64,000 bases of DNA from Candidatus Microgenomates bacterium (GTDB lineage: Bacteria > Patescibacteriota > Microgenomatia > UBA8517): positions 193 to 64,192 of the forward strand of contig JBEKQV010000001.1 of the NCBI GenBank assembly GCA_049519355.1, read 5' to 3'. The translations under genes and the position numbers were made by a program. Below, one piece after another: positions 1 to 52,950 of this stretch. The notes beneath the pieces are model-generated. The model was not told the origin of the DNA. It saw nothing but the letters and a program-made list of their open reading frames with translations, and ran no database searches. Every line of letters starts with the position of its first letter. Positions within the stretch are counted from its first letter, which is position 1.

Positions 1-300
1 TTACCAGATCTCGAAACATCGGCTCCGTAGGTTTGGTACCTATTTTCAGCTAGAAAAATCATATGCCTCCCAGCACCTGAACCATGATCCAAAATCTTAA
101 ATTTATTCGAATTCTTACGAGGAAAATTTCCAAAAACAAATTGTATTACTCTTTCGTGTGGATAACGAGTACAAAATTGGTCTTGCCTGTGCAGATCGTT
201 CCACAACTTTCTATTATTTTGAATTCTATTAATATTCAAGTTATTATTAAAAATATTCTTCCTAAAACGAACAGGTTAATTTCTAATTACAAAGTTCTTC
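1..300 (-). pseudogene. Diverged, truncated second copy of the 5' half of the adjacent SAM-methyltransferase gene. It runs off the window edge and may be a partial paralog or pseudogene.
   Basis: My own minus-strand translation of 1-260 gives ...IQNNRKLWNDLHRQDQFCTRYPHERVIQFVFGNFPRKNSNKFKILDHGSGAGRHMIFLAENRYQTYGADVSRSG. This is collinear with the N-terminus of the 338..1021 product (MNSIQKNKSLWQDLHKHLQFRTRYPHERV...GSGAGRHVVFLAENGYQAYGADISSTG). Bases 63-180 are near-identical to 853-970. Confidence 0.4.
63..180. repeat. 118-bp direct repeat, copy 1, about 98% identical to 853-970
   Basis: The string atgcctcccagcacctgaaccatgatccaaaatcttaaatttattcgaattcttacgaggaaaatttccaaaaacaaattgtattactctttcgtgtggataacgagtac occurs at both loci. 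The copies diverge immediately after (acaaaattgg versus acgaaattgt). Confidence 0.85.
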
Positions 301-1027: not shown

Positions 1028-2128
1028 TTATCTTTTTAATACATTTTTCCACTCGACACCCCTAAAAGCAGAAATATCGCTTTGACAAACTTTTCCTAAT
1101 ATAATTTCAAAAAACTGAGGATGAATCCCCGGGTGCAAAAATCTTTCCGCTCTTAAAACTCTTATGTTTCTTATGGTAAACCTTTCTCCAAATCTAATCT
1201 TTTTAATTGCGAATATACTACGTTTATCTCCAGGATAAATTTCTTTCTCACATTTAGCTATAATTTTTTCATAACTACCCATAATTTTTGGGTGTTTCGA
1301 TAAGAATTCCTTTTTCTGTTTCTGGGAAAATTTTTCAACTTCTCTAATTTTCTTTATCATAAGCATTAGCTCGTTTGGCTCCAATGCGTAGAAATGATCT
1401 GCCCCTTTTAAATTTTTACTGATCGTAAAGTGCTTTTCAACTATCCTTGCACCATTACAAACAGCCAACGTCGGAATTAAAACTGGATCTGTAGTGTGGT
1501 CGGAAACCCCAGCAATAACTCCAAAAACTTTAATAAGTGTTTGAATAAAATTTAGATTATATTCTTCTGCGGGTGCTGGATAAGCAGATAAGCAATGTAG
1601 AACAGCAATTTTAAAATTGTTTTGCTTCTTTATTGTCTCAATTGCTAAATCTATGTCCGAGATTGTGCTTAATCCATCAGACATAATTATTGGTTTATTC
1701 TTCTTCGCAATATGTTTCAGCAAAGGAATATGATTCAATTCTGGAGATGCTATTTTATACGCTAGCGCTCCATATTTTTCTAAAATATCTGAGCTTCTTT
1801 CATCAAATGGGGTGGCAAGAAAAATAATTTTTCTTTCTTCGCAATACTTCTTTAGTTTTGGTATCCAATCATAATCAACCTCATGTTTCTTCAAAAAGCC
1901 GTAAAGATCTAAGGTTTTATTATTTAGTCTAATTTTACCGCTATTTTTAGGGTACAACTTATCAGCCCTAAAAATCTGGAACTTGATAGCGTCTGCCCCA
2001 GCCTCCGCAGCGATATCAACTAGCTTCAATGCTTGATTAAAATTTCCATCATGGTTACTCCCCGCTTCCGCTACAATAAAACTTGAACTATTCTGACTAA
2101 TGTTTTTGTTTCCAATTCTTAAATCCAT
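1028..2128 (-). CDS. Nonulosonic acid synthase, NeuB/PseI/LegI family (N-acetylneuraminate-synthase-like)
   Basis: 366 aa. Hallmark N-terminus IVAEAGSNHDGNFNQALKLVDIAAEAGADAIKFQ, TIM-barrel NeuB core and a C-terminal SAF-like tail. Confidence 0.8.
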   Translation of the reverse strand: MDLRIGNKNISQNSSSFIVAEAGSNHDGNFNQALKLVDIAAEAGADAIKFQIFRADKLYPKNSGKIRLNNKTLDLYGFLKKHEVDYDWIPKLKKYCEERKIIFLATPFDERSSDILEKYGALAYKIASPELNHIPLLKHIAKKNKPIIMSDGLSTISDIDLAIETIKKQNNFKIAVLHCLSAYPAPAEEYNLNFIQTLIKVFGVIAGVSDHTTDPVLIPTLAVCNGARIVEKHFTISKNLKGADHFYALEPNELMLMIKKIREVEKFSQKQKKEFLSKHPKIMGSYEKIIAKCEKEIYPGDKRSIFAIKKIRFGERFTIRNIRVLRAERFLHPGIHPQFFEIILGKVCQSDISAFRGVEWKNVLKR

Positions 2129-3969
2129 TTGGAGATATTAAACTTACTCTTTATAAAATTATTATATTTTAATTCTGCCATCTTCCAGTCTTCTATGGTA
2201 TCTATATCTTGTGCAGACGAGTCTGAAATAATAATAGTACCAAAATTTTCCTCTAGTACTTTCTCATTTTTATTAAATTTATCCGTCCATGCCCAGTAAA
2301 ACTGCCCACTATCGTGATATGAAGCGGGGAAATCCTGAGATCTTTTATACATATTTCCAGGTTGAATCATTTTAATCTTCTGACTAACTATTCTATATGC
2401 TCGCTGAATTGGATAACTGTATCTAACAACGGGAATAACAGAGTCAAACTTTCCCTTTATTAATAAATCGAAAGATTTCTTAAGTAGTCCCTCGGTTATT
2501 AAAGGAGCTGTTGGATAAATACAACAAAAGATATCAAAAACCATAGAATTATTTTCATATCTTCCAAGAACTTCTTTAATTACAGACGCTGTGGTTGAAT
2601 AATCCTCAGAATTTTTTTTTGAACGGAAAAAGGGAACCTTCGCTCCATACTTTTTCGCAACTTTTGCAATCTCTTCATTGTCGGTAGATACCATAACTTC
2701 ATCAAATAACTTACTTTTGATAGCCGTTTCGATAGAATAAGCAATTATTGGCTTACCTAAAAACTTCTTAACATTTTTTTTAGGAATTCTTTTACTACCC
2801 CCTCTCGCAGGAATAATAGCTAATATCTTCCTTTTTTTTAAAAAGGAAGTAATAACTCCAATAACTTTTTGCTGTTCAGAATAACCTAGCCCAGGATAAA
2901 TAGGAATGCTAATTATTCTTTCATAAAATTCTTCCGCAATAGGACAAATGCCCTTTTTGTAACCCAACTCTTGATAATAAGGATGCCAATAAACCGGGAT
3001 ATAGTGTACTTGGCAAAAAATACCATTCTCTTTTAAACGGTTAAACAAATTTAAACGTGTTTCTTTGTCTTTAACTTTAACGATATATAGGTGATAAGCG
3101 TTTTTATACCCTTTATCGGGTTTTATTACCTGTATTTCATTTACTCCCGCAAAAGCTTCATAATATCTTTTTGCAATGGAAATTCTTTTTTCTACAAACT
3201 GATTAACTCTTCCAAGTTGACTTATTCCGAGAGCACACTGGAGATCGGTAATTCTGTAATTATAACCAAGTTCTTGCATTTCATAATACCAAGAACCTTC
3301 ATTTTGATTTATTAATTTGCCAGAGTCCTTGGTTATTCCATGAGTCCTTAAAATAAGCAATTTTTCATAAAATTCTTTTGAATTAGTTGTAATCATTCCT
3401 CCCTCTCCGGTTGTTATATGTTTGACAGGATGAAAACTAAATACAGCCATATCTGAATAAGTACAGTCACCAATCTTTGTACCTTTGTATCGCGAACCCA
3501 AGGAATGACAAGCGTCTTCTATTACAACCAACTTGTGCTTTCTCGCGATATCTTTTATTTTTTTCATATCACAAGGTAACCCACCGTAGTGGACAGGAAT
3601 TACTATTTTTGTTTTCGAAGTTATTTTTTTCTCGATCAATTTTTCATCAATAAGGCCATTTTCCTCTTTAATATCTACAAAGACGGGTCTTGCACCACAA
3701 TACAATGCACAATTTGCTGAAGCTGCAAAAGTCATTGGAGATGTAATCAACTCATCACCCTGTTTTAATCCAGCTGCAAGACACGCAAGGTGGAGAGCAG
3801 CAGTTCCGTTTGAAACCGCAACTGCGTATTTTACATTAACCAGTTTAGCAAACTTTTCTTCGAATTCCTTTATTTTTGGTCCAGTAGTTAGATATTCGGA
3901 GTTTAAAGTATCCACAACTGCTTTTATATCTGATTTACTAATTGTCTGTCTCCCATAAGGTATATTCAT
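2119..3969 (-). CDS. Bifunctional fusion in one ORF. The N-terminal domain is a DegT/DnrJ/EryC1-type PLP sugar aminotransferase (PseC/LegC-like). The C-terminal domain is a CMP-nonulosonate cytidylyltransferase (NeuA/PseF/LegF-like).
   Basis: 616 aa. The N-terminal ~380 aa carry GDELITSPMTFAASAN, DACHSLGS and SFHPVKHITTGEGG. The C-terminal ~230 aa carry ILAIIPARGGSKRIPKKNVKKFLGKPIIAYSIE, the CMP-NeuAc/CMP-KDO synthetase signature. No stop or frameshift lies between the domains. Confidence 0.75.
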   Translation of the reverse strand: MNIPYGRQTISKSDIKAVVDTLNSEYLTTGPKIKEFEEKFAKLVNVKYAVAVSNGTAALHLACLAAGLKQGDELITSPMTFAASANCALYCGARPVFVDIKEENGLIDEKLIEKKITSKTKIVIPVHYGGLPCDMKKIKDIARKHKLVVIEDACHSLGSRYKGTKIGDCTYSDMAVFSFHPVKHITTGEGGMITTNSKEFYEKLLILRTHGITKDSGKLINQNEGSWYYEMQELGYNYRITDLQCALGISQLGRVNQFVEKRISIAKRYYEAFAGVNEIQVIKPDKGYKNAYHLYIVKVKDKETRLNLFNRLKENGIFCQVHYIPVYWHPYYQELGYKKGICPIAEEFYERIISIPIYPGLGYSEQQKVIGVITSFLKKRKILAIIPARGGSKRIPKKNVKKFLGKPIIAYSIETAIKSKLFDEVMVSTDNEEIAKVAKKYGAKVPFFRSKKNSEDYSTTASVIKEVLGRYENNSMVFDIFCCIYPTAPLITEGLLKKSFDLLIKGKFDSVIPVVRYSYPIQRAYRIVSQKIKMIQPGNMYKRSQDFPASYHDSGQFYWAWTDKFNKNEKVLEENFGTIIISDSSAQDIDTIEDWKMAELKYNNFIKSKFNISKWI

Positions 3970-4979
3970 ATAACTCCAAATCTTTTAAAAATTTTGGAAA
4001 CTTCATCCTTAGAAATTACTGCATTTGCAGAACTATACTCCTGCAGTAATTTTTCATTCACAACCTTGCCCTTTTTAATATAAATAGCTTTTTTAATACC
4101 TTTGGTGTCCTGGATAGGAGAACCGATTACATAAAAATTCATAAAATTATATGTTCTAGGTATTTCAGAATTATTTATCATCAATTCATGTATTTTTTCT
4201 CCCGGTCGAATTCCGACTATCTTTATTTTATTTTTCTTATGATATTTATCTCTTAATATCTCGATTAAATCGGTTATTTTAAATGAAGGAATCTTAGGAA
4301 CAAAAATTTCTCCTCCCACTCCATATGTTATGGCATTAAATACCAACTCAACCGCCTGTTTCGGACTGATGATAAACCTCGTCATCCTGGGATCGGTTAA
4401 TGGAATATCATCATTATTTACAATTTTTTCGCTAAAGAAAGGAATTACCGAACCTGTGCTTTCCAAAACATTTCCGTATCTGACTGTGGTAAAAACCGTT
4501 TTAAGATCTCCCTTGCTATAGTTACTCTCCGTAAATATTCTTTCACTAACAAATTTGCAGGCTCCATATGTATTTACAGGTGAACAAGCTTTATCTGTTG
4601 AAATCATTACAGCCTTTTTAACGTTATTTTTAAGACATGCATTCACCACATTTAATGTACCCAAAATATTCGTTTTGATTGATTCTTCAACGTTATATTC
4701 CATAAGATCGAGTCTTTTTAATGCCGCAGCATGAATAACAATATCCACCCGTCTTGTTGCCTTAAGAAGTCTTTCGTAATCCCGGACATCGCCCAAAAAA
4801 TTTCTAATTTTTTTATTGTGGTGAAACTTTTCCTGAAATTTATAATGTTTTACTTCATCGCGACTAAAAACCCTTATACTCTTCGGGTGCTGTTTAAGAA
4901 TTTCTGAAGTTAATGCCTGCCCAAGATAACCAGTGCCTCCCGTAATTAAAACTGTTCTATTTGTAAATATATTTGCCAT
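3966..4979 (-). CDS. UDP-GlcNAc 4,6-dehydratase-like enzyme of the PseB/FlaA1/CapD Polysacc_synt_2 family
   Basis: 337 aa. RTVLITGGTGYLGQALTSEIL Rossmann motif, ...SRDEVKHYKF..., DIVIHAAALK. Length and motifs match PseB/LegB-type enzymes. Confidence 0.75.
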   Translation of the reverse strand: MANIFTNRTVLITGGTGYLGQALTSEILKQHPKSIRVFSRDEVKHYKFQEKFHHNKKIRNFLGDVRDYERLLKATRRVDIVIHAAALKRLDLMEYNVEESIKTNILGTLNVVNACLKNNVKKAVMISTDKACSPVNTYGACKFVSERIFTESNYSKGDLKTVFTTVRYGNVLESTGSVIPFFSEKIVNNDDIPLTDPRMTRFIISPKQAVELVFNAITYGVGGEIFVPKIPSFKITDLIEILRDKYHKKNKIKIVGIRPGEKIHELMINNSEIPRTYNFMNFYVIGSPIQDTKGIKKAIYIKKGKVVNEKLLQEYSSANAVISKDEVSKIFKRFGVI

Positions 4980-6286
4980 TAATTTTCAAAAGTAAAACTA
5001 TCTCTTAGAGCGGTTAGATTGTTTTTGATATTATACTCTTTTCTATATTCGAGCATGTTCTTTTTGAAAACCGCTAATTTACTTTTATATTCTGGGAAAT
5101 TTTCAATCATATCAACCATCTTTCTTACAAACGACTCCATGTTCTCACACCGGAATCCAATAGGTTTCGTTTGTTTATTAAAATAGTCATAACCCGGATT
5201 GCTAAGATGAAGAACCGGCTTAAGATATGAAAAAGATTCAAAAATCGATAGACTACAACCAAACCGATGACGATTTCTATCATATAAATTTATAAACACA
5301 TCGATATCTCGAGCAGAATCCTCCATTTCCCGTCTACTCAAAACTCTTCCCCGGCTTAACCAGGTAATATTCGCAAAACCCTCGGTACCTCTACTATCCA
5401 TGCTAATAATCCGAATTTCATAAGATCTTGTTAATTTCTTTTTAGAAAGAAGTGTTAACATCCTGTACATTTGAGCAGAATCTCCATAACCAAAAACGGC
5501 AAATTTAATAAACTTATTCTTTACAGCAGACGCCGAATTATTAAAAATAATTGGCAAAATGATTGTGTGGAAGTTCAGAAATTTGGTATTTAGATATTTA
5601 CTGGCATTTTTTGTAACATGTGGAGATAAAGAAATATATTTATACTGATTTGAATGTTGCCACATCATCATTTTCTTCACACGGAAAATTTTTTTGAAAA
5701 TAAGTGAATAATTTAAATCTAACCAACGAATTGGAACAGTCACCCTGTTAATTGCAAAGGACAACACCAGTTTCGGATCTCTAAATCCTTTAATAACCGA
5801 TTTTTTGTAGTCAGTTTTTATCATTCCTCTTCTGATTCCAGGAATATAAGCTTCTTTATAATTTTTGTTGGCGATATCTTCCAATTCACCGTGAAGAACA
5901 AAAGTGCAATTAATTTCTTTATATTTATCTTGCTGTTTCAGTTTTTTTACAAGATAAAGAATAACCGGATTCATTGATAAGAAAAAAACCTTATTTTCAT
6001 GAAAGCTTATTAATTTATCAAACATATCTTTTATCAAAAGATAGTTTTTGATAACCCCACCGAGACTATAACTTTTATTTCCACTGAAATTTATAGGAGA
6101 AAGTATTAAATCGTTGATAATAACTCCACTAACCTTAAAAATATTCTTAAGATTTCTGAAATAGTTTTTATCGGCAAAGAATATTATTTTCTCGTTTGGG
6201 TAAGCCAGCCTTAGACCATAGATAAATCCGCTATTTACTTCTTCATGGCTTATTCCTTTACATTGAAGTTCACAGATTACTATCAT
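4979..6286 (-). CDS. Hypothetical protein with a GT-B-like C-terminal half; candidate glycosyltransferase
   Basis: The ATG at 6284-6286 abuts the stop of the upstream gene; the ORF-track start at 6472 lies inside the neighbouring gene. The C-terminal region (FAVFGYGDSAQ...DIDVFINLYDRNRHRFGCSLSIFESFSYLKPVL) resembles GT-B C-domain helices. No family assignment is possible. Confidence 0.45.
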   Translation of the reverse strand: MIVICELQCKGISHEEVNSGFIYGLRLAYPNEKIIFFADKNYFRNLKNIFKVSGVIINDLILSPINFSGNKSYSLGGVIKNYLLIKDMFDKLISFHENKVFFLSMNPVILYLVKKLKQQDKYKEINCTFVLHGELEDIANKNYKEAYIPGIRRGMIKTDYKKSVIKGFRDPKLVLSFAINRVTVPIRWLDLNYSLIFKKIFRVKKMMMWQHSNQYKYISLSPHVTKNASKYLNTKFLNFHTIILPIIFNNSASAVKNKFIKFAVFGYGDSAQMYRMLTLLSKKKLTRSYEIRIISMDSRGTEGFANITWLSRGRVLSRREMEDSARDIDVFINLYDRNRHRFGCSLSIFESFSYLKPVLHLSNPGYDYFNKQTKPIGFRCENMESFVRKMVDMIENFPEYKSKLAVFKKNMLEYRKEYNIKNNLTALRDSFTFEN

Positions 6287-6287
6287 T

Positions 6288-7517
6288 CTATATAATTTCA
6301 ATTTCTGGTAATGGAAAGATAAATTTTCCACCGCTTTCAGTAAACTTTTTCTCCCTTTCCAAAATATTGTATTTAAAATGCCAAGGCAAAACAAAAAAAT
6401 AATCAGGGTTCTTTGATTTAGCAGCCTTTTCGGATATGATTGGAATATTAGTTCCAGGTGTAAACGAACCAAACTTTTCTTTGTTCACTTCCGCGATGCA
6501 AGGAATTTGTCTCGAATTTAATTCGCAAAATTGTAAAAGTACATTTCCCTTGGTACTGGCTCCATAACCAATTATCTTCTTACCGCTTTTTACCAAAGAA
6601 TTAATCAATTTCCCTAAATTTTCTCGGTGTCTAAACACTTTTTCTTCAAAATCACGGTAGGGTTTAGGTGTATCCAATCCCATATCTTTTTCCTGTTCAA
6701 GCAGCCACTTTATAACCGGCTTATTTGATACATATTGTGCTTTCTTTTTACAAGCGGTTACCGCAAAGCTGCCACCGTTTATAGAATTCATTTGGACGTC
6801 TACAATACGCATTCCGCAACTTTCCAATAGGTTTTTCACTACTTTAAAAGAATAAAATTCCAAATGCTCATGGCAAATAGTATCGTAAGCATTTGTTCTT
6901 AACATGCTGGGCATGTAACTTTGTTCAAAATGCCAAACCCCATCATTAGTAAGACATTTTTCAATATCCTGGACGAACGCTTTCGGATTTTCCAGATCGT
7001 AAAACATTGCAATCGAAGTTATTATTTTTGCTTTTGTGTTTGGGAAAGTATCTTGGAAGATTGATTCGGAAAAGAAATCTGAAATTAAAGTCATATCTTT
7101 CGCATAAAATTTCTTGAATTTCTTAGCAGTCGGGTCAATTCCAACTTTTTTATATTTTCCGGAGCAAGCTCTAAGCAGAGTTGCATCATTACTTCCAATA
7201 TCGATCATTAAATCTGTTGCTTTTGGTTTTACCAAGGTTTCAAGCATTTTCATCTTTTGTTGTAAATGCTTTACCATTGAAGAATTAAGTCCAGAGCGGT
7301 ATCCGTAGTTATCTCCGTACATTTCTTCAAGACTATATGATTGCTTCAATTGAAGAAGTCCGCATTTTGAACACCAAACAACATCCAAAGGACCTTTTGT
7401 AATTTTCTCTTTTCTTGATTTTGGAAATACTCCTGTCAGATATTGTTCTCCGAACGAAAGTACTGTAATTAAATGTGAATTTTGACAAATTCTGCACCTT
7501 TTTATCTCTGAATACAT
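6288..7517 (-). CDS. SAM-dependent C-methyltransferase with an N-terminal Zn-ribbon, TylCIII / NDP-hexose C-methyltransferase-like
   Basis: 409 aa. N-terminus CRICQNSHLITVLSFGEQYLTGVF...WCSKCGLLQL carries two CxxC pairs (a putative Zn-binding domain). Then DIGSNDATLL methyltransferase fold and the C-terminal domain typical of sugar C-methyltransferases. Confidence 0.65.
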   Translation of the reverse strand: MYSEIKRCRICQNSHLITVLSFGEQYLTGVFPKSRKEKITKGPLDVVWCSKCGLLQLKQSYSLEEMYGDNYGYRSGLNSSMVKHLQQKMKMLETLVKPKATDLMIDIGSNDATLLRACSGKYKKVGIDPTAKKFKKFYAKDMTLISDFFSESIFQDTFPNTKAKIITSIAMFYDLENPKAFVQDIEKCLTNDGVWHFEQSYMPSMLRTNAYDTICHEHLEFYSFKVVKNLLESCGMRIVDVQMNSINGGSFAVTACKKKAQYVSNKPVIKWLLEQEKDMGLDTPKPYRDFEEKVFRHRENLGKLINSLVKSGKKIIGYGASTKGNVLLQFCELNSRQIPCIAEVNKEKFGSFTPGTNIPIISEKAAKSKNPDYFFVLPWHFKYNILEREKKFTESGGKFIFPLPEIEII

Positions 7518-7519
7518 AT

Positions 7520-8329
7520 TTATTTAGGCAAGATAAGAAAATTTATTTCATTGATTACCCTCGAAAATTTATAGTTAATATCCTCAACAAAATCTATATA
7601 ATCCTGAAAATGCATGTTGTATTTATCTTGATAGATTCCTTGGAATTCAAATATTATAGGCATTTTATTTTTCTTTATTGTTTTCCGGGCTCCTTCCATA
7701 GCCTTTAAATCACCGCCTTCAATATCAATCTTCATAAAGCTTATTTGTTCTTTTATTTTTAGACCATCAATTGTGAGAGATTTCACCTTTCGACCCCTGC
7801 GTGCGATATAATCGATTCCAAAAGATCCGTAAGATTGATATTTTTTAAAATCCTGTACAGGGAAAAAAAGTGTCTTATTATTTTTATTATGGACCGCGCC
7901 AAAATGTGGAATTATTACTCCATTTTTCCCGTTAGCTTTAATATTTTTTAATAAAATTTTATATACCCAATCATCGGCCTCAAAGGAGTAAACCCTTCCT
8001 TTACCGTTTAACAATTTGGAAAACAAGACACTCATCTGACCAAAGTTGCTACCTATATCTAAAACTGAAGTTTTAGGCCTTATAAATTTTGAGGCCCATT
8101 CTACTATTTCTTTATCAAAAATCTGATTGTTTTTAATCGCTGCAGCGATTTCATCATTGATAGCATCGGTTGGTAAAAAATAGTTTCCGGTCTTAGTGCT
8201 ATAAAAAGACAACTTCTTGTTTCTTACAGAATGTGGGACATCTCCGTACTTTACTATGTCATAACCCAATTTCCTAATTGTATTTACAATTAATTTTTTC
8301 ATACCTACGAGAGATAAACTTTTTTCCAT
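7520..8329 (-). CDS. FkbM-family methyltransferase
   Basis: 269 aa. VLDIGSNFGQMSVLF and KIDIEGGDLKAMEGA, the FkbM/Methyltransf_21 hallmarks. Confidence 0.7.
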   Translation of the reverse strand: MEKSLSLVGMKKLIVNTIRKLGYDIVKYGDVPHSVRNKKLSFYSTKTGNYFLPTDAINDEIAAAIKNNQIFDKEIVEWASKFIRPKTSVLDIGSNFGQMSVLFSKLLNGKGRVYSFEADDWVYKILLKNIKANGKNGVIIPHFGAVHNKNNKTLFFPVQDFKKYQSYGSFGIDYIARRGRKVKSLTIDGLKIKEQISFMKIDIEGGDLKAMEGARKTIKKNKMPIIFEFQGIYQDKYNMHFQDYIDFVEDINYKFSRVINEINFLILPK

Positions 8330-9099
8330 TTGTTTTTGCCTAAATTATAAGATAGATGTTTAACATGCTCTTTCTGAATCCAAAAAGAATCGGCCTGCAA
8401 GCCATCTTCTTGCAACTCGTAATCAACAAGCTGAAAATCTTTTGACTTTAATAAATTATATATAGTCTCCCAAGTCTTTTGGCCTTTCCAGATCGGAGCA
8501 AATTCTGTTTCTATCTGCAGGGCTTTAACCTTCTTAATTTCTTTTCCAAATCCCTTCAGGACTTCATAAGTTAAGCCCTCCACATCTATTTTTACGAAAT
8601 CAACAGATTTTATATTATTCTTAGAAATAAAATAATCCATCCTAATAGTTTCGACTTTAATGCCAGTATATATTCCCTCATCATTGTATTTATGTACCTT
8701 CAAAGAAGAAACTCCATTATTTCTTTTAAGATCTACCGCATGAAAAATAACGTCTTTATTTATATCGGAAACTGCTAAACCATAACAATTAAAAGAGTAG
8801 TTGTTCTTAATTTTCTTATAAAGTACGGGGTGAGGTTCAAAAACATAAATATTTTTAGATTTCAAATTAAACTGGGTCCTTAGAAATTCGGCATCTTGCC
8901 CAAAATTTGCTCCAATTTCAAATATATTTTTGGGTACAAAATTTGAAAGCTGTTTAATGTAACGAACGGTTTTCAATAAATATCGTGTGCTCATTTTCGC
9001 AGCATCTAAATCCCTTTTATAAAAAATGATCTGAATCCCTGTTAAGTTGGATATTGTTTGGGTAGTTATTGTTATAAATTTATTTATATATTTTTTCAT
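8305..9099 (-). CDS. FkbM-family methyltransferase, paralog of 7520..8329
   Basis: 264 aa. IFEIGANFGQDAEFL and FVKIDVEGLTYEVLKG. Confidence 0.7.
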   Translation of the reverse strand: MKKYINKFITITTQTISNLTGIQIIFYKRDLDAAKMSTRYLLKTVRYIKQLSNFVPKNIFEIGANFGQDAEFLRTQFNLKSKNIYVFEPHPVLYKKIKNNYSFNCYGLAVSDINKDVIFHAVDLKRNNGVSSLKVHKYNDEGIYTGIKVETIRMDYFISKNNIKSVDFVKIDVEGLTYEVLKGFGKEIKKVKALQIETEFAPIWKGQKTWETIYNLLKSKDFQLVDYELQEDGLQADSFWIQKEHVKHLSYNLGKNKWKKVYLS

Positions 9100-9150
9100 G
9101 ATTATTCTTTGTATTCCTACTTGAATGACTTTTAGGACTTTTAATAGTTT

Positions 9151-10056
9151 TTAATGCAAAAAATTTGCTAATTTGCGTATGTTAATTTTTAATCGATCAA
9201 TTACTATTCCGTATTTCTTCGGCTCATCGTAATTAACAATTCCAAAACCCCGAGAGTAATTGGAATTTATTACATAACCTATATAACCTCTTGCTATGTC
9301 TTTTAGAGTAATTCCTTTTTTTAAATATTCAATGTGCTGAGATTTTTTGTAAAATAATTTAATTAACGGTTCCCTAATTTCTATAGGAATGGTCTTATCT
9401 TTTTGAAGCCACATGTTATACCACGAAAATTCATAGGGAGAAATTTTTAAAATATCTTTATAGGATTTACGTTTCGGAGTTAGGTATTTTCTATGAAAAG
9501 ATTCTAAAACTTTAGATGAAACGATCACAAATCCGTGATATGTGAGCATTCGCCTATCGTTTAATCCAACTTCTTTTTGTATTTTACGAATCAGTGTCTC
9601 CCTCTCACGCCAATAAAATTTATAATATTCAGGGTCAACTTTTAATTCATTATCTTCGACCAGAATCGTATAGGGAGTGGTCTTGTCATACATAAAATCA
9701 GATTTATAAAATTTCCTTATAAATACGCCGTCGGCATCCATACAAAAGTAGTTCTTACATAATCGCTTTTCCCAAAATGCAAGTTTAATAATTTCCTGAT
9801 TTATATACCCCAGACGTATGCCCCGAATACTATTGTCATGAACTAAGTCTTTTGTAACTGACTCGTCACTTAGTAACTTAATTTCCTTCCCTATGAACCT
9901 CTTAAAATGATTCATATCTGATTCCGGTACTACTATATATAGCGGAATGTTGTCGGCGTTGTACCTTTTATAAGTTCGAATTAGTCTTTTAACATACTCT
10001 ATATCGCCTACGTACGTCTTAAGTAAAATTACTATTGTTTCCATTTTCTCAATCAT
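9151..10056 (-). CDS. Hypothetical soluble protein, possibly a GT-A-like transferase (DxD-like CMDADGVF)
   Basis: 301 aa with no transmembrane segments. It contains only a DAD motif and no family signature I can name. Confidence 0.3.
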   Translation of the reverse strand: MIEKMETIVILLKTYVGDIEYVKRLIRTYKRYNADNIPLYIVVPESDMNHFKRFIGKEIKLLSDESVTKDLVHDNSIRGIRLGYINQEIIKLAFWEKRLCKNYFCMDADGVFIRKFYKSDFMYDKTTPYTILVEDNELKVDPEYYKFYWRERETLIRKIQKEVGLNDRRMLTYHGFVIVSSKVLESFHRKYLTPKRKSYKDILKISPYEFSWYNMWLQKDKTIPIEIREPLIKLFYKKSQHIEYLKKGITLKDIARGYIGYVINSNYSRGFGIVNYDEPKKYGIVIDRLKINIRKLANFLH

Positions 10057-11314
10057 TTTCTATAGACCATTCGTGTTCCATATACACACGACCATAGTCG
10101 GGAAGCGTAGAAACAAGAGAATGTTTCAATGTGGTTTCCAAAACATCAAAATAAAATAAATTTTCGTTGAGATAATAATATTTATCAAAAGGCTTATCTA
10201 TCCCAAGTCCTAGCCTATACCTGCCCGAACTTAGATCAAAACTATTTATCAAACATGTAACATGGTTTTCACCCTTCTTAATAGTAATATCCATTCCTTT
10301 TGTAATTTTCGTATCAGAAGAAAAAGCGTGACCATTGATATCGTCTTGAGAAATCATTAAATTAATTCCCAAACCTTTCAAATTTTCTTTGGAAAGTATT
10401 CGAATATCAATCTTTAATGGTTTCCCTGGATAAATTTTCCCATGTAAATATTCATTTATGGTTATTTGTTTAATAATCAAATTTAATTCCGAGACCTTAA
10501 TCGGGACAAATTTTTTTCTGATATCAGGTGTTTTTGTATACTTATCTATGGCAGAACCAACACTTCCTTCAAATACCTTCTGGCCTTTTTGAAGCAATAT
10601 CGCCTTATTACAAAGATTCTTTATTGCAGTCATGTTGTGACTTACAAATAATATAGTCCTACCCTCGTTTCTGGTTATTTCACCCATCTTACCTAAAGAT
10701 TTTTTTTGAAATTCGGCATCTCCAACCGCAAGCACCTCATCAACAATCAGGATCTCGGAATCAAGGTGCGCAGCCACGGCGAATGCTAAACGCATATACA
10801 TTCCTGATGAATAATGTTTAACAGGTGTATCCAAAAATTTTTCAACACCTGCAAAATTAACTATTTCGTCAAATTTTTTATTTATCTCACGTCTCTTCAT
10901 TCCCAGAATTGCACCATTAAGATAAATATTCTCCCTACCGGTTAGTTCCTGCTGAAAACCGGTCCCAACTTCAAGTAGACTCCCAACCCTACCTCTTAAT
11001 ACGGCTTCACCCCTGGTCGGTGGAGTAATTTGACTCAAAACCTTAAGAAGGGTACTTTTCCCTGAACCGTTTGGTCCAATTATTCCCAAAACATCTCCCT
11101 GGTTTAGCTTAAAAGAAATATCTTTCAGTGCCCAAAATTCACCTTTCCTCAAAACCGAAGGTCTTTTATTCTGGCTAAAAATCTGTAACGGGGTTCTTAC
11201 AATAGCTGCCAGCGTATCCCTTAAAGTGTAATATGGTTGAAATTCACCATATTTATATTTTTTTGATACGTGATTAACTTCAATTATAGATTTCATATTA
11301 AACAAGATCGGCAA
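10049..11314 (-). CDS. wzt: ABC transporter ATP-binding protein for glycan export (Wzt/TagH-type) with a C-terminal extension
   Basis: 421 aa. Walker A GIIGPNGSGKST, signature YSSGMYMRLAFA, Walker B ILIVDEVLAVGD. About 165 aa follow the nucleotide-binding domain, like the Wzt C-terminal carbohydrate-binding domain. Confidence 0.8.
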   Translation of the reverse strand: MPILFNMKSIIEVNHVSKKYKYGEFQPYYTLRDTLAAIVRTPLQIFSQNKRPSVLRKGEFWALKDISFKLNQGDVLGIIGPNGSGKSTLLKVLSQITPPTRGEAVLRGRVGSLLEVGTGFQQELTGRENIYLNGAILGMKRREINKKFDEIVNFAGVEKFLDTPVKHYSSGMYMRLAFAVAAHLDSEILIVDEVLAVGDAEFQKKSLGKMGEITRNEGRTILFVSHNMTAIKNLCNKAILLQKGQKVFEGSVGSAIDKYTKTPDIRKKFVPIKVSELNLIIKQITINEYLHGKIYPGKPLKIDIRILSKENLKGLGINLMISQDDINGHAFSSDTKITKGMDITIKKGENHVTCLINSFDLSSGRYRLGLGIDKPFDKYYYLNENLFYFDVLETTLKHSLVSTLPDYGRVYMEHEWSIEND

Positions 11315-12122
11315 AGAATCCTTCAGTAGACTTAAAATAATATATTCCGGTTATAAAAAGCAAAACAGATACAACCCCTGCAATTAAGAGTGTCTGCCAG
11401 TTCAGAATATTTCCGCCTGAAAATACAGTTCTGGCGGCTTCTATTACTCCAGTCATCGGGTTTAAAGCAATTATTTCTCTGAATGAAGGCCTCATTATAC
11501 TGGTTGGATATATTACCGGCGTTAAAAAAATCATAATTTGAATAAAAAATGGCAACGCATAACGGACATCCCTGTATTTGACATTAAAGGAAGCAAGAAA
11601 AAGACCCAAACCTTCCGCACCTAATGTGCTAATAATTAAACATAGAGGAACAATAAATAAAGTTAGTAAGCTAGGAACAAAATGGAAGTAAAAAGAAACG
11701 ATGAGTAAAAGAATCAGGGATATCCCAAAATCGACCAGGTTTGCCCCTACTGTAGAAAGAGGGAGAATTTCCCTAGGAAAATATACCTTTTTAACAACTC
11801 CTTCATTTTCGATTAAAGAATTACTCGCGCGGGATAATATTCCAGAAAAATAGTTCCAAAAAACCAAACCCGTCAAGACAAATAGTGGGTAGGGTAAATC
11901 GCCAGACGGAATTTTAGCAAAGTTTCCAAAAAAAATCGTAAAAATGAAGGTTGAGGTCAAAGGTTGGAAGACTGCCCAAGATGCCCCAAAGAGAGTCTGT
12001 TTATAACGAACTTTGATATCCCTCCAAGCAAATATCCAAAAAAGTTCACGGTATCTCCAAAGTTCTTCAATATCCAAAAGCATCCATTTCGATTTGGGTT
12101 TTATTACAGTTGTGTAACTCAT
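11298..12122 (-). CDS. wzm: ABC-2 type polysaccharide export permease (Wzm/TagG-like)
   Basis: 274 aa with six predicted transmembrane segments. It overlaps wzt by 17 nt. Confidence 0.7.
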   Translation of the reverse strand: MSYTTVIKPKSKWMLLDIEELWRYRELFWIFAWRDIKVRYKQTLFGASWAVFQPLTSTFIFTIFFGNFAKIPSGDLPYPLFVLTGLVFWNYFSGILSRASNSLIENEGVVKKVYFPREILPLSTVGANLVDFGISLILLLIVSFYFHFVPSLLTLFIVPLCLIISTLGAEGLGLFLASFNVKYRDVRYALPFFIQIMIFLTPVIYPTSIMRPSFREIIALNPMTGVIEAARTVFSGGNILNWQTLLIAGVVSVLLFITGIYYFKSTEGFFADLV

Positions 12123-49763: not shown

Positions 49764-51464
49764 CTAATTCACTTTAAAAATTGTTACGTTGTTATTTTGA
49801 AATATCTGTGTCAACCCAAGCTGCTTGGCTCCCAATTTCGCATGCTGATCCGTTAACCAATAAATATATGATATGTTATTTTTCTCAAGAAAACTTCTAG
49901 CACTACTAATATTTAGCGTCGTGAGAAAGCTCTCAACGGAATTTCTCCTTCCCTGCCAAGGATATTGTAAATTATCTAAATTCGTTTGATCTTCTAAAAA
50001 CGTATCCTTATCCGAAAAGGCAGAAACATATGCTGTTGTATCATACATGTACAACGGGGTTAATGAATGCCCACCCAAAATTTTTGTAGAGTTATAAGGG
50101 TAAGTTAACACGATACCATCCGGCTGTTGCGATAAGAATTTCAACGCTTCTAATTCATTTGTAGGAATAACAGAGGGTGGTTTCTCCGGCAAATAATAAC
50201 CCATCGACGCAATTGTTGTTGGTATGGTCAGCAATACAAAAATGGTAATTATCAAGCCTTTTGTAAACGATGATGATTTACTTTCAATAAAATTTCCTAC
50301 TACTACCCCCGCAGCGATTCCCCCAAATATAAGGGAATAATAGAAAAACTGAATGGTGTTCCATGGGGTTCCTTTCTGCGTAAAAAACATCGGGACGACA
50401 ATTCCTGCCAAAATTAATGCAAACAAAAATATCTCGATTGGACCTGCTGTTAATAGTTTTTTTGGCTTTTGGAGAAGTGGTTTGAGTGCCACTAGTCTCG
50501 TACTGAAATTGCCAACAATAAAAATAACAAACGCTAAACCATAAGCCAATATTGCCTTTCCCCAAATTCTTCCCATTCTATAAGTGGTCATCGCCGAATA
50601 GAGCTTGTACCAATTGAATCTGTCTGGGTAAGCCATCATCGATTCCAAAAACCAGAAAGGAGTAAAAACAATTAAGTTTACCGAAGATTTATTGAAGGGA
50701 ATAAATAAAAACATGGAGATTACTGCCGTGACCAAAAATATCCAAAGTAAAAAATAATCTTTCTTTCTAATTATCTGCCAGATTGCTACAATTAAAATTG
50801 AAGTTAAAACTAGAAGTCCCGCGTACACTTTGATAAAAATTGAGACGCCTAAAAATAATGCGGTAAGACAAAAGTTAAATAAAGTCTTTTTCTCAAGATA
50901 TTTTTTAAGGTATATGAGTCCCAAAAGAATAGTTATCAACGAAAGTGCAAATGGGGGGTTAATAAGAGTTGATATGGATTGCTGGGACCAATACATACTT
51001 TCCCCTCCCCAACCTTGACCTCTAAAAAGCGAAACCAACCAGCCAAAACTGCCGCCAAAGTAAACAAAAAAGACCGCAATCAACGATTCGATCTTTGATT
51101 TTCGCCAAATATACACAAATGCGTACGAAAGTAACCCAATTGCAAGAGCCAGTATTGGAGGGGTTATTTGAAAATAAAGATTAACAACAGGAATAAAAGT
51201 AATTTTGTGTAAAATGGCCAAAATTAAATCAAAACCGATGTGATAATTTTGAATAGGAAGACTTGCAAATGTAGGCAATTGAAACGACCCGCGCGACAAA
51301 CTTTCAGCAAGAGCGACATGCCATACCCCATCATGGCCGTTTGCTCCCCAAAAACCAATGCCGTAAGAATAAATCCACCCACTTTTTACCATCGTCAAAG
51401 ACCAAACAATGGTGCCAATTAAAACCAATAGCCATTTAAAAACGTTATTTGTTAATATTTTCAT
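49764..51464 (-). CDS. Polytopic membrane protein, family B paralog 3
   Basis: 566 aa. GANGHDGVWHVALAES, PIQNYHIGFDLIL, C-terminus ...TIFKVN. Confidence 0.5.
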   Translation of the reverse strand: MKILTNNVFKWLLVLIGTIVWSLTMVKSGWIYSYGIGFWGANGHDGVWHVALAESLSRGSFQLPTFASLPIQNYHIGFDLILAILHKITFIPVVNLYFQITPPILALAIGLLSYAFVYIWRKSKIESLIAVFFVYFGGSFGWLVSLFRGQGWGGESMYWSQQSISTLINPPFALSLITILLGLIYLKKYLEKKTLFNFCLTALFLGVSIFIKVYAGLLVLTSILIVAIWQIIRKKDYFLLWIFLVTAVISMFLFIPFNKSSVNLIVFTPFWFLESMMAYPDRFNWYKLYSAMTTYRMGRIWGKAILAYGLAFVIFIVGNFSTRLVALKPLLQKPKKLLTAGPIEIFLFALILAGIVVPMFFTQKGTPWNTIQFFYYSLIFGGIAAGVVVGNFIESKSSSFTKGLIITIFVLLTIPTTIASMGYYLPEKPPSVIPTNELEALKFLSQQPDGIVLTYPYNSTKILGGHSLTPLYMYDTTAYVSAFSDKDTFLEDQTNLDNLQYPWQGRRNSVESFLTTLNISSARSFLEKNNISYIYWLTDQHAKLGAKQLGLTQIFQNNNVTIFKVN

Positions 51465-52950
51465 TCTTGTGAAGTATTATTCCGGAAACTTTTCTTATGT
51501 CGTCAATTATCGACATTCCGACAAAAACAAAAATCGAAGCAAAATAAGCAACCATTCCAATAACTGTCAGCACAAAGACCGAATAAAGATTTACTGGCAA
51601 AAAGTTTCTTAGAACCAAAAGAACAGCTCCCATAATAAAGGATGCCGCAAGTGGCTTAAATGTACTTTCCGTCAACGAAAAGTCGACGTATTTCTTAACA
51701 ATAAATATAGCGATGATGGAGGAAGCTCCAACAATTGCATAACCTGCTGACGCACCGTTAACACCATACTTTAGACCCAAATAAGGAACAAGTAGCCATG
51801 TCAAAACTGTCCACATAACCATTAGTCCCGAAGTTATTTTGATCTTACCTATGGCATTCAGAAGGTTGGTCAATTGTGTCGTAACGGCAGCAAATATCAC
51901 GTTTACGGCTAAAAATGCAAGAGGAATAACTGCGGGTAGCCACTGAGAGAATTTGGATATGGATTGGAAAACTATCGGGGCAAGAATAACTATTCCGACA
52001 ACGGCAGGGAAAACCAAGAAAGCAATGAAGAAGATTGAGCGAGTTACATTTTCTTTCAATTCCTTCATGTTGTCCTGCATTCTGGAAAAAGCCGGGAAAG
52101 TAACCCGGGTTACATTATCAAGAACTACTCTTAGCGGCATCTGAATCCACCCCTGGGCCCAAGAAAGAATTCCAAGTGGTCCCAATCCGATAACTTTACC
52201 CAAGATTATTGTTAAACCGTCATCCTTTAAAACAGCTATAAAAGTGTTTATTTGGTATGGAATTCCAAAAACAAGAAGCTTCTTGAGTGAACTTCTTGAA
52301 ATCTGAAGTGTCGGCTTCCATGGTTGGAAAAGATATAGCACTGTTACTCCGATAATTCCCCTGGCAATAACCGAAATTGTAAAACTGGTAATTCCAAAAC
52401 CCTTCCACGCCAAAAAAACCAGAACGAGATTGTAAACAAGAGTCTCAATAATTGCAGATATCGCAACCACTTCGAATCTTAAATGCCGTTCCAATATCAC
52501 CGACGGAATTGATTTCAAAGAAGACATAAAAAATGAAAAACAAAGTGCATAAAGGAGGTATACCGAGCTTTGATCAAGATTGTAAAAATGGCGTATAAAC
52601 GAAGTCCCCGCCACTACAATAAGAATTAGTGTAATTACCAGTATCTGCTGAACAGTGAATGTTGTTTTTAGGTCCTCCTGCGTAATTTTTTCCTTCTTCT
52701 GAATTAAGGATGCGGCTAAACCAATATCAGAAAAGTAAACCAAAAAATTTATGATTGCGGAGACAACACCAAAAATTCCGAAAAGTACCGGGTTTAGAAA
52801 CTTGCCCAGAAAAAAATAGGCAATTATTGTGATTATGTAAACCCCAAAGTACTGTTGTGTGAGAGCCACAATACCTTTGACAGTACGGCTTTTGACGGTT
52901 TCCAGGTTTATTTCGGCCGTTGGATCCAAATGTTCCTCAGTAGGTTCCAC
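51445..52950 (-). CDS. wzx: Wzx-type oligosaccharide flippase (MOP superfamily polysaccharide biosynthesis protein)
   Basis: 501 aa with about 14 transmembrane segments. The N-terminal region VKGIVALTQQYFG...LNPVLFGIFGVVSAIINFLVYFSDIGLAASLIQKKE has the Polysacc_synt pattern. GTG start. Confidence 0.65.
   Translation of the reverse strand: MEPTEEHLDPTAEINLETVKSRTVKGIVALTQQYFGVYIITIIAYFFLGKFLNPVLFGIFGVVSAIINFLVYFSDIGLAASLIQKKEKITQEDLKTTFTVQQILVITLILIVVAGTSFIRHFYNLDQSSVYLLYALCFSFFMSSLKSIPSVILERHLRFEVVAISAIIETLVYNLVLVFLAWKGFGITSFTISVIARGIIGVTVLYLFQPWKPTLQISRSSLKKLLVFGIPYQINTFIAVLKDDGLTIILGKVIGLGPLGILSWAQGWIQMPLRVVLDNVTRVTFPAFSRMQDNMKELKENVTRSIFFIAFLVFPAVVGIVILAPIVFQSISKFSQWLPAVIPLAFLAVNVIFAAVTTQLTNLLNAIGKIKITSGLMVMWTVLTWLLVPYLGLKYGVNGASAGYAIVGASSIIAIFIVKKYVDFSLTESTFKPLAASFIMGAVLLVLRNFLPVNLYSVFVLTVIGMVAYFASIFVFVGMSIIDDIRKVSGIILHKNENINK

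Follow-up and report, generated by a model that had tools for sequence, protein, structure and literature searches.

A nonulosonic acid gene cassette of apparently mosaic origin in a Candidatus Microgenomates bacterium, with a fused PseC-PseF protein and WbqC as candidate for the PseH step

Results

Gene content of the locus

We analyzed a stretch of 64 kb of DNA from a Candidatus Microgenomates bacterium (contig JBEKQV010000001.1), referred to here as the window, which has a G+C content of 31-40% and in which no tRNA or Rfam matches were found. Near its left edge lies a gene cassette for a nonulosonic acid (NulO) of the pseudaminic (Pse) or legionaminic (Leg) family. The original prediction, made from the sequence alone, had placed three open reading frames (ORFs) between positions 1028 and 4979, and all three are present there on the minus strand: a NeuB-family NulO synthase of the SpsE type (366 amino acids, positions 1028 to 2128), a 616-amino-acid fusion of the aminotransferase PseC with the cytidylyltransferase PseF (positions 2119 to 3969), and a PseB-like UDP-GlcNAc 4,6-dehydratase (337 amino acids, positions 3966 to 4979). 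Comparison with loci (L001 to L042) and proteins (P0002 to P0432) from metagenome and genome databases suggests that this cassette is a mosaic of two types of NulO cluster, and points to WbqC, encoded just beyond the window, as a candidate for the PseH step.

The cassette had been described as compact and possibly minimal, a description that does not hold because further genes belong to the same operon, namely, those for a second methyltransferase paralog, for WbqC, and for a putative KpsS-like transferase. Directly downstream of the synthase gene, also on the minus strand, lies the gene for MT227 (positions 338 to 1021), a class I S-adenosylmethionine (SAM)-dependent methyltransferase of 227 amino acids that is TehB-like (Pfam Methyltransf_25/11 and TehB). 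It is followed in tandem by a second MT227 paralog, of which only the 5' portion lies within the window (positions 1 to 239, minus strand, with a possible TTG start at 239); the translation of this portion ('...NRKLWNDLHRQDQFCTRYPHERVIQFVFGNFPRKNSNKFKILDHGSGAGRH...') resembles the MT227 N terminus. On the other side of the cassette, pseB is preceded on the same strand by the gene for GTB435 (positions 4979 to 6286; 435 amino acids from the methionine used by gene callers), a member of an unannotated GT-B-fold family that the original prediction had overlooked, and by the gene for CMT409 (positions 6288 to 7517; 409 amino acids), a sugar C-methyltransferase-type protein with Methyltransf_13/14 matches (Pfam PF08421, PF13489, and PF08484). 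Read from CMT409 to MT227, the first and the last pair of genes are separated by 1 and 6 nucleotides (nt), respectively, and the three pairs in between overlap by 1, 4 (ATGA), and 10 nt, in that order, which gives these genes the appearance of one translationally coupled operon.

The window is 99.99% identical to L002 and L003, which carry two copies of MT227, and L001 has a single copy. The window thus represents the two-copy strain type, and bases 1 to 239 encode the start of the second paralog. The tandem copies in the window, L002, and L003 are 81-86% identical in DNA; the gene is also single-copy in L031, and L004 and L005 end before the site. MT227 copy number is a polymorphism within one population. 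An ORF on the plus strand (positions 84 to 332) is antisense to the second copy and probably spurious. The gene for WbqC (PF08889, E = 2e-65) starts approximately 470 bp past the left window edge (L002 14438-15136). Beyond it lies a gene for a KpsS-like protein of 496 amino acids (490 as called in L002; L001 14367-15857, L002 15173-16645), after which come genes for two GT-A-like proteins, further methyltransferases, and a GT4 glycosyltransferase.

The PseC-PseF fusion

The presence of an aminotransferase and a cytidylyltransferase in one ORF, without stop or frameshift, had been part of the original prediction, and it was borne out. In Pfam searches, the 616-residue protein matched DegT_DnrJ_EryC1 (residues 10-373) and CTP_transf_3 (residues 384-511), and it exceeded the NCBIfam equivalog cut-offs for both PseC (TIGR03588; 512.3 versus 423.5, residues 3-375) and PseF (TIGR03584; 290.1 versus 205.7, residues 383-603). 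Residues 1-378 (positions 2836 to 3969) form the PseC domain, a pyridoxal phosphate (PLP)-dependent UDP-4-keto-6-deoxy-HexNAc (N-acetylhexosamine) 4-aminotransferase, and residues 383-616 (positions 2119 to 2823) form the PseF domain, a CMP-nonulosonate synthetase that also matched the NeuA structure 9FTB in the PDB with 165 bits. Domain search thus confirmed the two-domain architecture, and the linker between the domains proved to be a junction of about 4 residues (residues 379-382, positions 2824 to 2835), as defined by alignment and by an AlphaFold2 (AF2) model. At this site ('...SFLKKR-KILAIIPARGGSKR'), stand-alone PseC proteins end in the alignment at SFLKKR, and the PseF P-loop comes next. 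In the AF2 model, the overall confidence of which is moderate (pLDDT 75.8, pTM 0.59), a helix (residues 363-377) passes directly to a strand (residues 382-387) with pLDDT >80 and no low-confidence linker. The PLP lysine, K183, is invariant within the motif 'FSFHPVK', and the P-loop 'PARGGSKR' and the motif 'QDID' are kept in the PseF domain of the fused homologs.

Assemblies from JGI, ENA, Logan, and NCBI together contain 17 contigs that encode the identical protein; the longest of these contigs measures 872 kb. Since these contigs were assembled independently, the fusion is not an assembly artifact. Approximately 14 kb around the gene are 99.99% identical between assemblies from different samples. 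The same fusion was sought in other genomes and found: the fused homologs P0002 to P0007 are 60-69% identical to the window protein, and two of them are named 'transaminase/pseudaminic acid cytidylyltransferase' by JGI. At 50% identity, there are at least 5 distinct fusion clusters, namely P0362, P0364, P0366, and P0401, in which PseC precedes the cytidylyltransferase, and P0432, which has the reverse PseF-PseC order, as does L010. P0007 (L009 9314-12283), from Candidatus Staskawiczbacteria, is a triple PseC-PseF-NulO synthase protein of 989 residues, the synthase domain of which is placed on the same side as SpsE in the tree described below. Other Pse enzymes are fused as well, as illustrated by PseC-GNAT (P0008 and P0377) and PseB-PseC (P0094) proteins, and in P0035 and P0080 PseC is joined to a different type of cytidylyltransferase. 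The PseC-PseF fusion is therefore a recurrent architecture that is already annotated in databases; nothing relevant on natural PseC/PseF fusions was found in the literature searched.

In many cultured bacteria pseF lies directly downstream of pseC. This is illustrated by the Klebsiella plasmid NZ_CP055164, with the order pseB-pseC-pseF-pseG::pseH-pseI, in which the ATG of pseF is in frame with pseC and directly adjoins its stop codon ('REFF*MNVAIIPARGG'), so that the loss of one stop codon gives the fused protein. In the canonical route, PseC acts at step 2 and PseF at step 6 (PMC5378307). As these steps are not consecutive, the fusion is taken to mirror gene order and coexpression and not substrate channeling.

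The synthase and the dehydratase

The original prediction had named a NeuB-family synthase. The NeuB domain PF03102 matched residues 36-272 with 259.2 bits, and the PDB matches were all NeuB, PseI, or SpsE, which indicates that the enzyme belongs to the NeuB/NulO superfamily and is neither a KDO8P nor a DAHP synthase. The protein scored below the cut-offs of both the NeuB equivalog (TIGR03569; 298.7 versus 399.65) and the PseI equivalog (TIGR03586; 267.4 versus 340.25). Its closest solved relative is Bacillus subtilis SpsE (1VLI), with 293.6 bits as compared with 165.6 bits for PseI (8H2C) and about 141 for meningococcal NeuB. The alignment with SpsE runs from end to end (residues 4-364 against chain residues 17-377) and includes an SpsE-type linker that is gapped against PseI. 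In a neighbor-joining tree based on 253 TIM-barrel columns (100 bootstraps), the window synthase grouped with those of L033 to L036 (91% support) and with SpsE to the exclusion of PseI (86%), and it fell outside the PseI clade (94%). In contrast, 8 of 10 synthases from related loci (L007, L008, L010, L019, L020, L023, L025, and L027) are true PseI proteins with 430-522 bits, those of L007 and L008 scoring 430-459 against the PseI cut-off of 340. Taken together, the sequence data indicate an SpsE-type synthase that is neither PseI nor canonical NeuB nor a recognizable LegI, and with such a synthase the stereochemistry of the product, Pse or Leg, does not follow from the names PseC and PseF. Some members of the clade are named legionaminate synthase by JGI. 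A metagenome scan with the synthase returned 3 loci, one of which, L030, holds the conserved synthase-MT227 pair.

The 4,6-dehydratase was likewise identified as predicted (Polysacc_synt_2, 316 bits). Its NCBIfam score for PseB (TIGR03589) was 355.2 bits against a cut-off of 407.75, with 234 for FnlA and 66 for LegB, and it carries the motif T128-x9-Y138-x3-K142.

Two probable ancestries within one cassette

The genes of the cassette differ in their closest relatives. The PseB-like dehydratase is 75-80% identical to that of L007 and L008, two loci with true PseI and a GNAT acetyltransferase, and 45-47% identical to those of L033 to L035, which represent a second, WbqC-type cassette. The corresponding values are 73-75% and 48-51% for the PseC domain, and the PseF domain (53-57% to L007/L008) has no match in L033 to L035. 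The synthase shows the opposite pattern, with 33-34% identity to L007/L008 (33-38% when all four fusion loci, L007 to L010, are considered) and 62-68% to L033-L035. MT227 is 51-60% identical to its counterparts in L033-L035, and WbqC, not present in L007/L008, is 49-54% identical to those of L033-L035. MT227 orthologs adjoin this synthase clade in L030, L033, L034, L035, L041, and L042.

The synthase clade and WbqC occur together in six loci, comprising the metagenome contigs L033 to L036, L040 (synthase from a Pacebacteria metagenome-assembled genome [MAG], NCBI), and L042 (a Methanomicrobiales archaeon). All six cassettes contain the SpsE-type synthase and WbqC, and each has an AP_endonuc_2 or DUF218 protein. 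A PseB-like dehydratase is found in 4/6 (L033, L034, L036, and L040); none is within reach in L035, and L042 has in its place only a distant short-chain dehydrogenase/reductase (SDR) of the Polysacc_synt_2 type. PseC-type aminotransferases occur in all but L042, those of L033, L034, and L036 being above the NCBIfam cut-off. Five of the six encode a TehB-like methyltransferase (L036 has a TylF-type one), five a CTP_transf_3 cytidylyltransferase other than PseF, and four a second, divergent DegT protein. No GNAT or Glyco_tran_28_C protein was detected in any of these six cassettes. Relatives of the KpsS-like protein are present in both cassette types, canonical and WbqC-type (L011, L015, L020, L025, L026, and L028, with more distant ones in L033 and L040). 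This protein has a weak Capsule_synth (KpsS/KpsC-type) match and is likely the NulO transferase.

These identities indicate that the locus is a mosaic, in which pseB and pseC::pseF appear to derive from a canonical Pse cluster of the Candidate Phyla Radiation (CPR) and the pseG/pseH/pseI segment appears to have been replaced by a synthase-MT227-WbqC set that recurs in CPR bacteria and archaea. In the window, the PseF domain is used in place of the WbqC-type cassette's own cytidylyltransferase. Descriptions of the WbqC-type cassette, or of NulO synthesis in CPR/Patescibacteria, were not found in the literature searched.

Local absence of PseH and PseG and presence of WbqC

All stop-to-stop ORFs of the window, L001, and L002 were searched for PseG and GNAT proteins with phmmer and with small profile hidden Markov models built from related loci. 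As had been predicted for the immediate neighborhood, neither was found. No PseG was present in the window or in approximately 8 kb beyond its left edge, the best profile match (E = 0.12) being an ordinary GT4, and no PseH or other GNAT was present in the window or in the L001/L002 ORFs (best profile match E = 0.99). The Pfam family Acetyltransf had no match among the 45 window ORFs scanned, which matched only GT2, GT4, and GT-C-like transferases, SDRs, methyltransferases, an ABC exporter, a flippase, and a DHH protein. A 2-epimerase of the NeuC/LegG type was not seen in the DNA examined.

To place these absences in context, we surveyed 23 synthase-containing loci, which are not phylogenetically independent, with 9-10 kb on each side. 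A GNAT was encoded in none of the 7 WbqC-positive loci and in 12 of the 16 WbqC-negative ones (Fisher p = 0.0013). PseG was detectable in 4 of the 16 WbqC-negative loci (p = 0.27) and thereby in 4/23 overall. The original prediction had taken the absence of both genes as a possible sign of a minimal or alternative route. The absence of PseG is so common that it provides weak evidence for a special route, whereas the absence of GNAT is the specific feature and correlates with WbqC. WbqC may thus be regarded as the best candidate for the PseH step, the modification of the 4-amino group, on the basis of this association. In cultured bacteria, WbqC occurs in DegT-containing amino-sugar clusters (Bacillus thuringiensis plasmids and Rhizobium); the clusters on B. 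thuringiensis plasmids contain two DegT proteins, a GNAT, a PIG-L protein, and a TIM-barrel protein. WbqC had no match in PDB or NCBIfam sequence searches. Its best match in a cultured organism, Natrinema, was discarded as a model for the cassette, as no synthase lies nearby.

MT227 was also considered as a replacement for PseH, with N-methylation taking the place of N-acetylation. This idea was weakened by L041, a Bacillota locus with an MptE/Maf-like protein, which encodes the same type of synthase, a TehB-like methyltransferase, a second DegT, and a cytidylyltransferase; in addition, it has genes for a GNAT and for a PseG-like protein but none for WbqC. PDB matches of MT227 were restricted to generic class I methyltransferases. 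A protein of 359 residues at the PseG position of L008 was rejected as PseG; it is a homolog of a 394-residue protein of L007, and since both adjoin HisH/HisF-like genes and the L008 protein carries the PP-loop motif 'SGGKDS', it is of the amidotransferase type.

Two further arrangements were noted at loci without PseG. In L007 (13515-16881), a CPR locus, genes for a GNAT-ATP-grasp fusion, an Epimerase-NUDIX fusion, and a PIG-L deacetylase lie beside pseB, pseC::pseF, and pseI, followed by the HisH/HisF-like genes and the PP-loop amidotransferase; this set may form an acetimidoyl-type substituent. In L020 (17248-17898; Methanolobus profundi) and L023 (18595-19353; a Sphingobacteriaceae MAG), a HAD-type hydrolase gene (TIGR02253/YjjG-like) is located directly upstream of true PseI, and a pyrophosphatase plus phosphatase might substitute for PseG there.

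The GTB435-CMT409 module and other glycan genes

GTB435 had no Pfam, NCBIfam, or PDB sequence match. Its family comprises approximately 146 homologs of 420-445 residues and is present in 19 species-representative genomes that range from CPR to Methanolobus, Bacteroidota, and Myxococcota. The AF2 model (pLDDT 87.3, pTM 0.83) and Foldseek matches with probability 1.0 to GT1, GT4, and GT5 structures (TM 0.42-0.58) assign to it a predicted GT-B fold with two Rossmann-like domains, and residues H14, E15, N18, D327, D329, E350, and K356 are invariant. Across phyla, GTB435 has a CMT409-type C-methyltransferase as its neighbor in 18/21 loci, as a rule accompanied by an SDR of approximately 295 residues, and pseB lies directly downstream of GTB435 in 9 loci. 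A NulO synthase is found in 13/21. GTB435 and CMT409 thus form a separate conserved module, which also occurs without any NulO synthase. Together with the SDR, they may constitute a module for a C-methylated 6-deoxy-HexNAc, in which GTB435 is probably the transferase for this sugar, derived from the same PseB product. The original prediction had pointed to the methyltransferases on either side of the cassette as a sign that the product may be methylated. Both exist and MT227 is linked to the pathway, but CMT409 belongs to this separate module.

Upstream of CMT409 on the minus strand, positions 7520 to 10056 encode two FkbM-family methyltransferases and a DUF6492 protein. The recurrence of these families in the GTB435 loci L012, L015, and L020 suggests that the glycan is heavily methylated. 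They are followed by the two parts of an ABC exporter, Wzt (positions 10049 to 11314, minus strand; ABC_tran and faint Wzt_C matches on the identical L001 genes) and Wzm (positions 11298 to 12122, minus strand; ABC2_membrane match on the identical L001 genes), which cluster with 12 and 7 loci of the GTB435 set, respectively. Further along, positions 22824 to 62410 contain about 20 consecutive genes for polytopic membrane proteins of 457-688 residues (PMT_2/PMT, STT3-like, PTPS_related, DUF6056, or no match), which form several paralog groups at 24-39% identity, with a Wzx-type flippase (positions 51445 to 52950) and GT2/GT4 genes interspersed. Such a large array of GT-C-like glycosyltransferases is unusual. 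Among the archaeal comparison loci, L013 (11351-18425; Methanoperedens) and L015 (11530-16764; Methanococcoides) contain a PseB-like dehydratase, SDRs, an RmlD-like reductase, a non-PseI NeuB-family synthase, a weak GNAT match, and a cytidylyltransferase, with no DegT within 10 kb; they may encode a pathway to a 9-deoxy NulO without a 7-amino group.

Discussion

A candidate route to the NulO

Considering the intact genes, their junctions, and their relatives elsewhere, we lean toward the view that the locus forms the core of a functional operon with translational coupling, which would produce a CMP-activated 5,7-diamino-3,5,7,9-tetradeoxy-nonulosonic acid of the Pse/Leg family for a surface glycan, by a variant route with WbqC as candidate substitute for PseH. 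In the second step of this route, the PseC domain of the fusion would transaminate C4, as suggested by the equivalog match and the PLP lysine. In the third, the resulting 4-amino group would be modified by WbqC instead of a GNAT, and MT227 may methylate the sugar at some position; these two roles are proposed from conserved gene association. Removal of UDP would constitute the fourth step, after which the SpsE-type synthase is predicted to condense the free hexose with phosphoenolpyruvate (step 5) and the PseF domain of the fusion to activate the product with CTP (step 6). Finally, the KpsS-like protein would probably transfer the sugar to a glycan exported by Wzm/Wzt (step 7), a combination that suggests an ABC-transporter-dependent glycan carrying the NulO.

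A more far-reaching version of this proposal is that WbqC replaces PseH, and possibly PseG, in a distinct CPR/archaeal NulO pathway and that, together with the TehB-like methyltransferase and the SpsE-type synthase, it leads to an undescribed NulO with a non-acetyl 7-N substituent, for example, a methylated or otherwise acylated one. We put this forward as a tentative idea that is less likely than not to be correct. CMP-NulOs with free amines and with methyl and formyl groups occur in environmental microbes (bioRxiv 10.64898/2026.04.20.719630), which makes a nonacetylated product plausible.

Several observations weigh against the route proposed above. WbqC is found without a NulO synthase in Natrinema and Rhizobium and beside a GNAT in B. 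thuringiensis, its mutual exclusion with GNAT was derived from 23 loci that lack phylogenetic independence, with flanks of 9-10 kb, and functional data on WbqC or PF08889 were not found in the literature searched. Furthermore, the window and L002 do not contain the non-PseF cytidylyltransferase and the second DegT of the WbqC-type cassettes, so that the hybrid may make the product of neither parent. The release of UDP has no candidate in the DNA examined, which leaves the pathway incomplete as written, and both the PseB-like dehydratase and the synthase score below their NCBIfam cut-offs. Each functional step is proposed from homology or gene association.

Scattered genes of an ordinary pathway as an alternative explanation

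The observed gene content could also be explained by an ordinary Pse pathway, the PseH and PseG (or NeuC/LegG) genes of which lie elsewhere in the genome of approximately 0.9 Mb, with WbqC and MT227 decorating the product or serving another sugar. The rarity of PseG speaks for this explanation: with a detectable PseG within ~10 kb in only 4/23 loci, and in none of the true-PseI loci L007, L008, L019, L020, L023, and L027, off-site or undetected hydrolases must be common. The B. subtilis pathway is split in a similar manner, with spsM in a second locus (PMC7439481), and WbqC is not specific to NulO clusters. However, what applies to PseG does not apply to GNAT, which is normally adjacent and yet is missing from all 7 WbqC-positive loci. 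In addition, the synthase was exchanged for one of another clade along with MT227 and WbqC, which suggests a changed substrate instead of a relocation of genes, and the approximately 74 kb examined are rich in glycan genes and contain no PseG or GNAT match even at E < 0.1. We thus regard scattered genes as an unlikely explanation, although one with arguments in its favor.

Pse or Leg stereochemistry

A product of the legionaminic type, or another non-Pse stereoisomer, is improbable to a similar degree. PseB has Tyr and SpsM has Met at the variable position of the motif T-x9-Y/M-x3-K, and the window dehydratase has the Tyr form. The closest relatives of this dehydratase sit with true PseI, the PseC and PseF domains of the fusion exceed the Pse equivalog cut-offs while LegC (267 versus 420) and LegB (66 versus 475) remain far below theirs, and a NeuC/LegG-type 2-epimerase was not seen in the DNA examined. 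The synthase argues in the other direction, since its best solved relative, its linker, and its position in the tree all point to SpsE, and the sps genes give Leg by a UDP-linked route with a dehydratase resembling PseB/CapE (PMC7439481). The JGI naming of some clade members agrees with this, and Pse and Leg are not unambiguously told apart by genomic data (bioRxiv 10.64898/2026.04.20.719630).

Less likely readings: GTB435 as a stand-in for PseG, or a defunct locus

The GT-B protein encoded next to pseB invites the alternative that GTB435 is a non-orthologous PseG, that is, a UDP-sugar hydrolase with water as acceptor. PseG shares the confidently predicted GT-B fold; GTB435 has an invariant His14-Glu15 just after strand 1 and a nucleotide-binding-type motif ('SILEA..KPV'), it lies upstream of pseB in the 9 loci mentioned above, and most GTB435 loci with a synthase have no PseG. 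In hhalign comparisons, however, the probability was 0.1% against PseG and 14.5% against GT4. L021 and L025 encode both GTB435 and a genuine PseG, and L025 has the complete canonical set. Furthermore, GTB435 occurs in 8/21 loci with no synthase within 10 kb, and it is not present in the other WbqC-type cassettes or in the fusion loci L008, L009, and L010. Moreover, its tightest partners are the C-methyltransferase and the SDR, a pattern typical of a branched-deoxysugar transferase. We therefore consider a role as PseG quite unlikely.

Finally, it is very improbable that the locus is a nonfunctional recombination scar of two clusters with an incomplete pathway, as might be argued from a mosaic that has neither the cytidylyltransferase and second DegT of the WbqC type nor the GNAT, PseI, and PseG of the canonical type, and from the strain-dependent copy number of MT227, because all ORFs are intact with their catalytic residues kept, assemblies from different samples agree at 99.99% DNA identity, genes overlap or are separated by just 1-6 nt, and dead genes would be unlikely to last in a reduced CPR genome.

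Significance

Pse and Leg sugars are found on flagella, S-layers, capsules, and lipopolysaccharide, where they shape recognition by phages and by the immune system. Their biosynthesis is considered well understood, on the basis of a few pathogens. Our analysis describes a recurrent variant in uncultured lineages, namely, CPR bacteria and relatives of methanogens, in which WbqC is always present and the textbook acetyltransferase and hydrolase are not. For WbqC, which is widespread in amino-sugar clusters, this provides a concrete and testable hypothesis. It also implies that annotations as 'pseudaminic acid' based on PseB, PseC, and PseF matches alone can mislabel the product. The replacement of part of the cassette is of more interest than the fusion, which illustrates that directly adjoining genes in the same frame become fused in reduced genomes, also where they encode nonconsecutive steps.

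Comparison with known systems

The canonical CMP-Pse systems of Helicobacter pylori, Campylobacter jejuni, and Tannerella forsythia share with the window the order of PseB-like, PseC, and PseF proteins. They differ from it in that pseC and pseF are fused here, PseH and PseG are not present, the synthase is not PseI, and MT227 and WbqC are found instead. Read as one in-frame piece, the pseC-pseF pair of the Klebsiella plasmid NZ_CP055164 is 47% identical to the window fusion.

The sps system of B. subtilis resembles the window in its SpsE-type synthase, UDP-linked precursors, PseB/CapE-like dehydratase, and DegT aminotransferase. SpsD is a GNAT, and SpsG is a PseG-like protein. Leg synthesis in B. 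subtilis requires the gene products of both spsD and spsG, and SpsE acts as the synthase of this UDP-linked pathway (PMC7439481). In the window, homologs of GNAT and PseG were not found, and the cytidylyltransferase is of the PseF type and fused.

PtmH of C. jejuni is a SAM methyltransferase within the legionaminic cluster that modifies the N-substituent (bioRxiv 10.64898/2026.04.20.719630). As in that ptm system, a methyltransferase sits here among the NulO pathway genes, but no amidotransferase of the PtmG type accompanies it. MT227 is TehB-like, with a faint likeness to the 'Pse-associated methylase' TIGR03587 (24 bits versus a cut-off of 112).

Compared with the WbqC-type cassettes, the window does not contain the non-PseF cytidylyltransferase, the second divergent DegT, and the AP_endonuc_2/DUF218 protein. 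It shares with them the SpsE-type synthase (56-68% identity to L033-L036, approximately 54% to L040, and 49% to L042), the TehB-like methyltransferase, WbqC, PseB, and PseC, as well as the absence of GNAT and PseG. Other metagenomic fusions, namely, P0002 to P0006, P0362, P0364, P0366, and P0401, have the same architecture of DegT followed by CTP_transf_3 as the protein encoded in the window.

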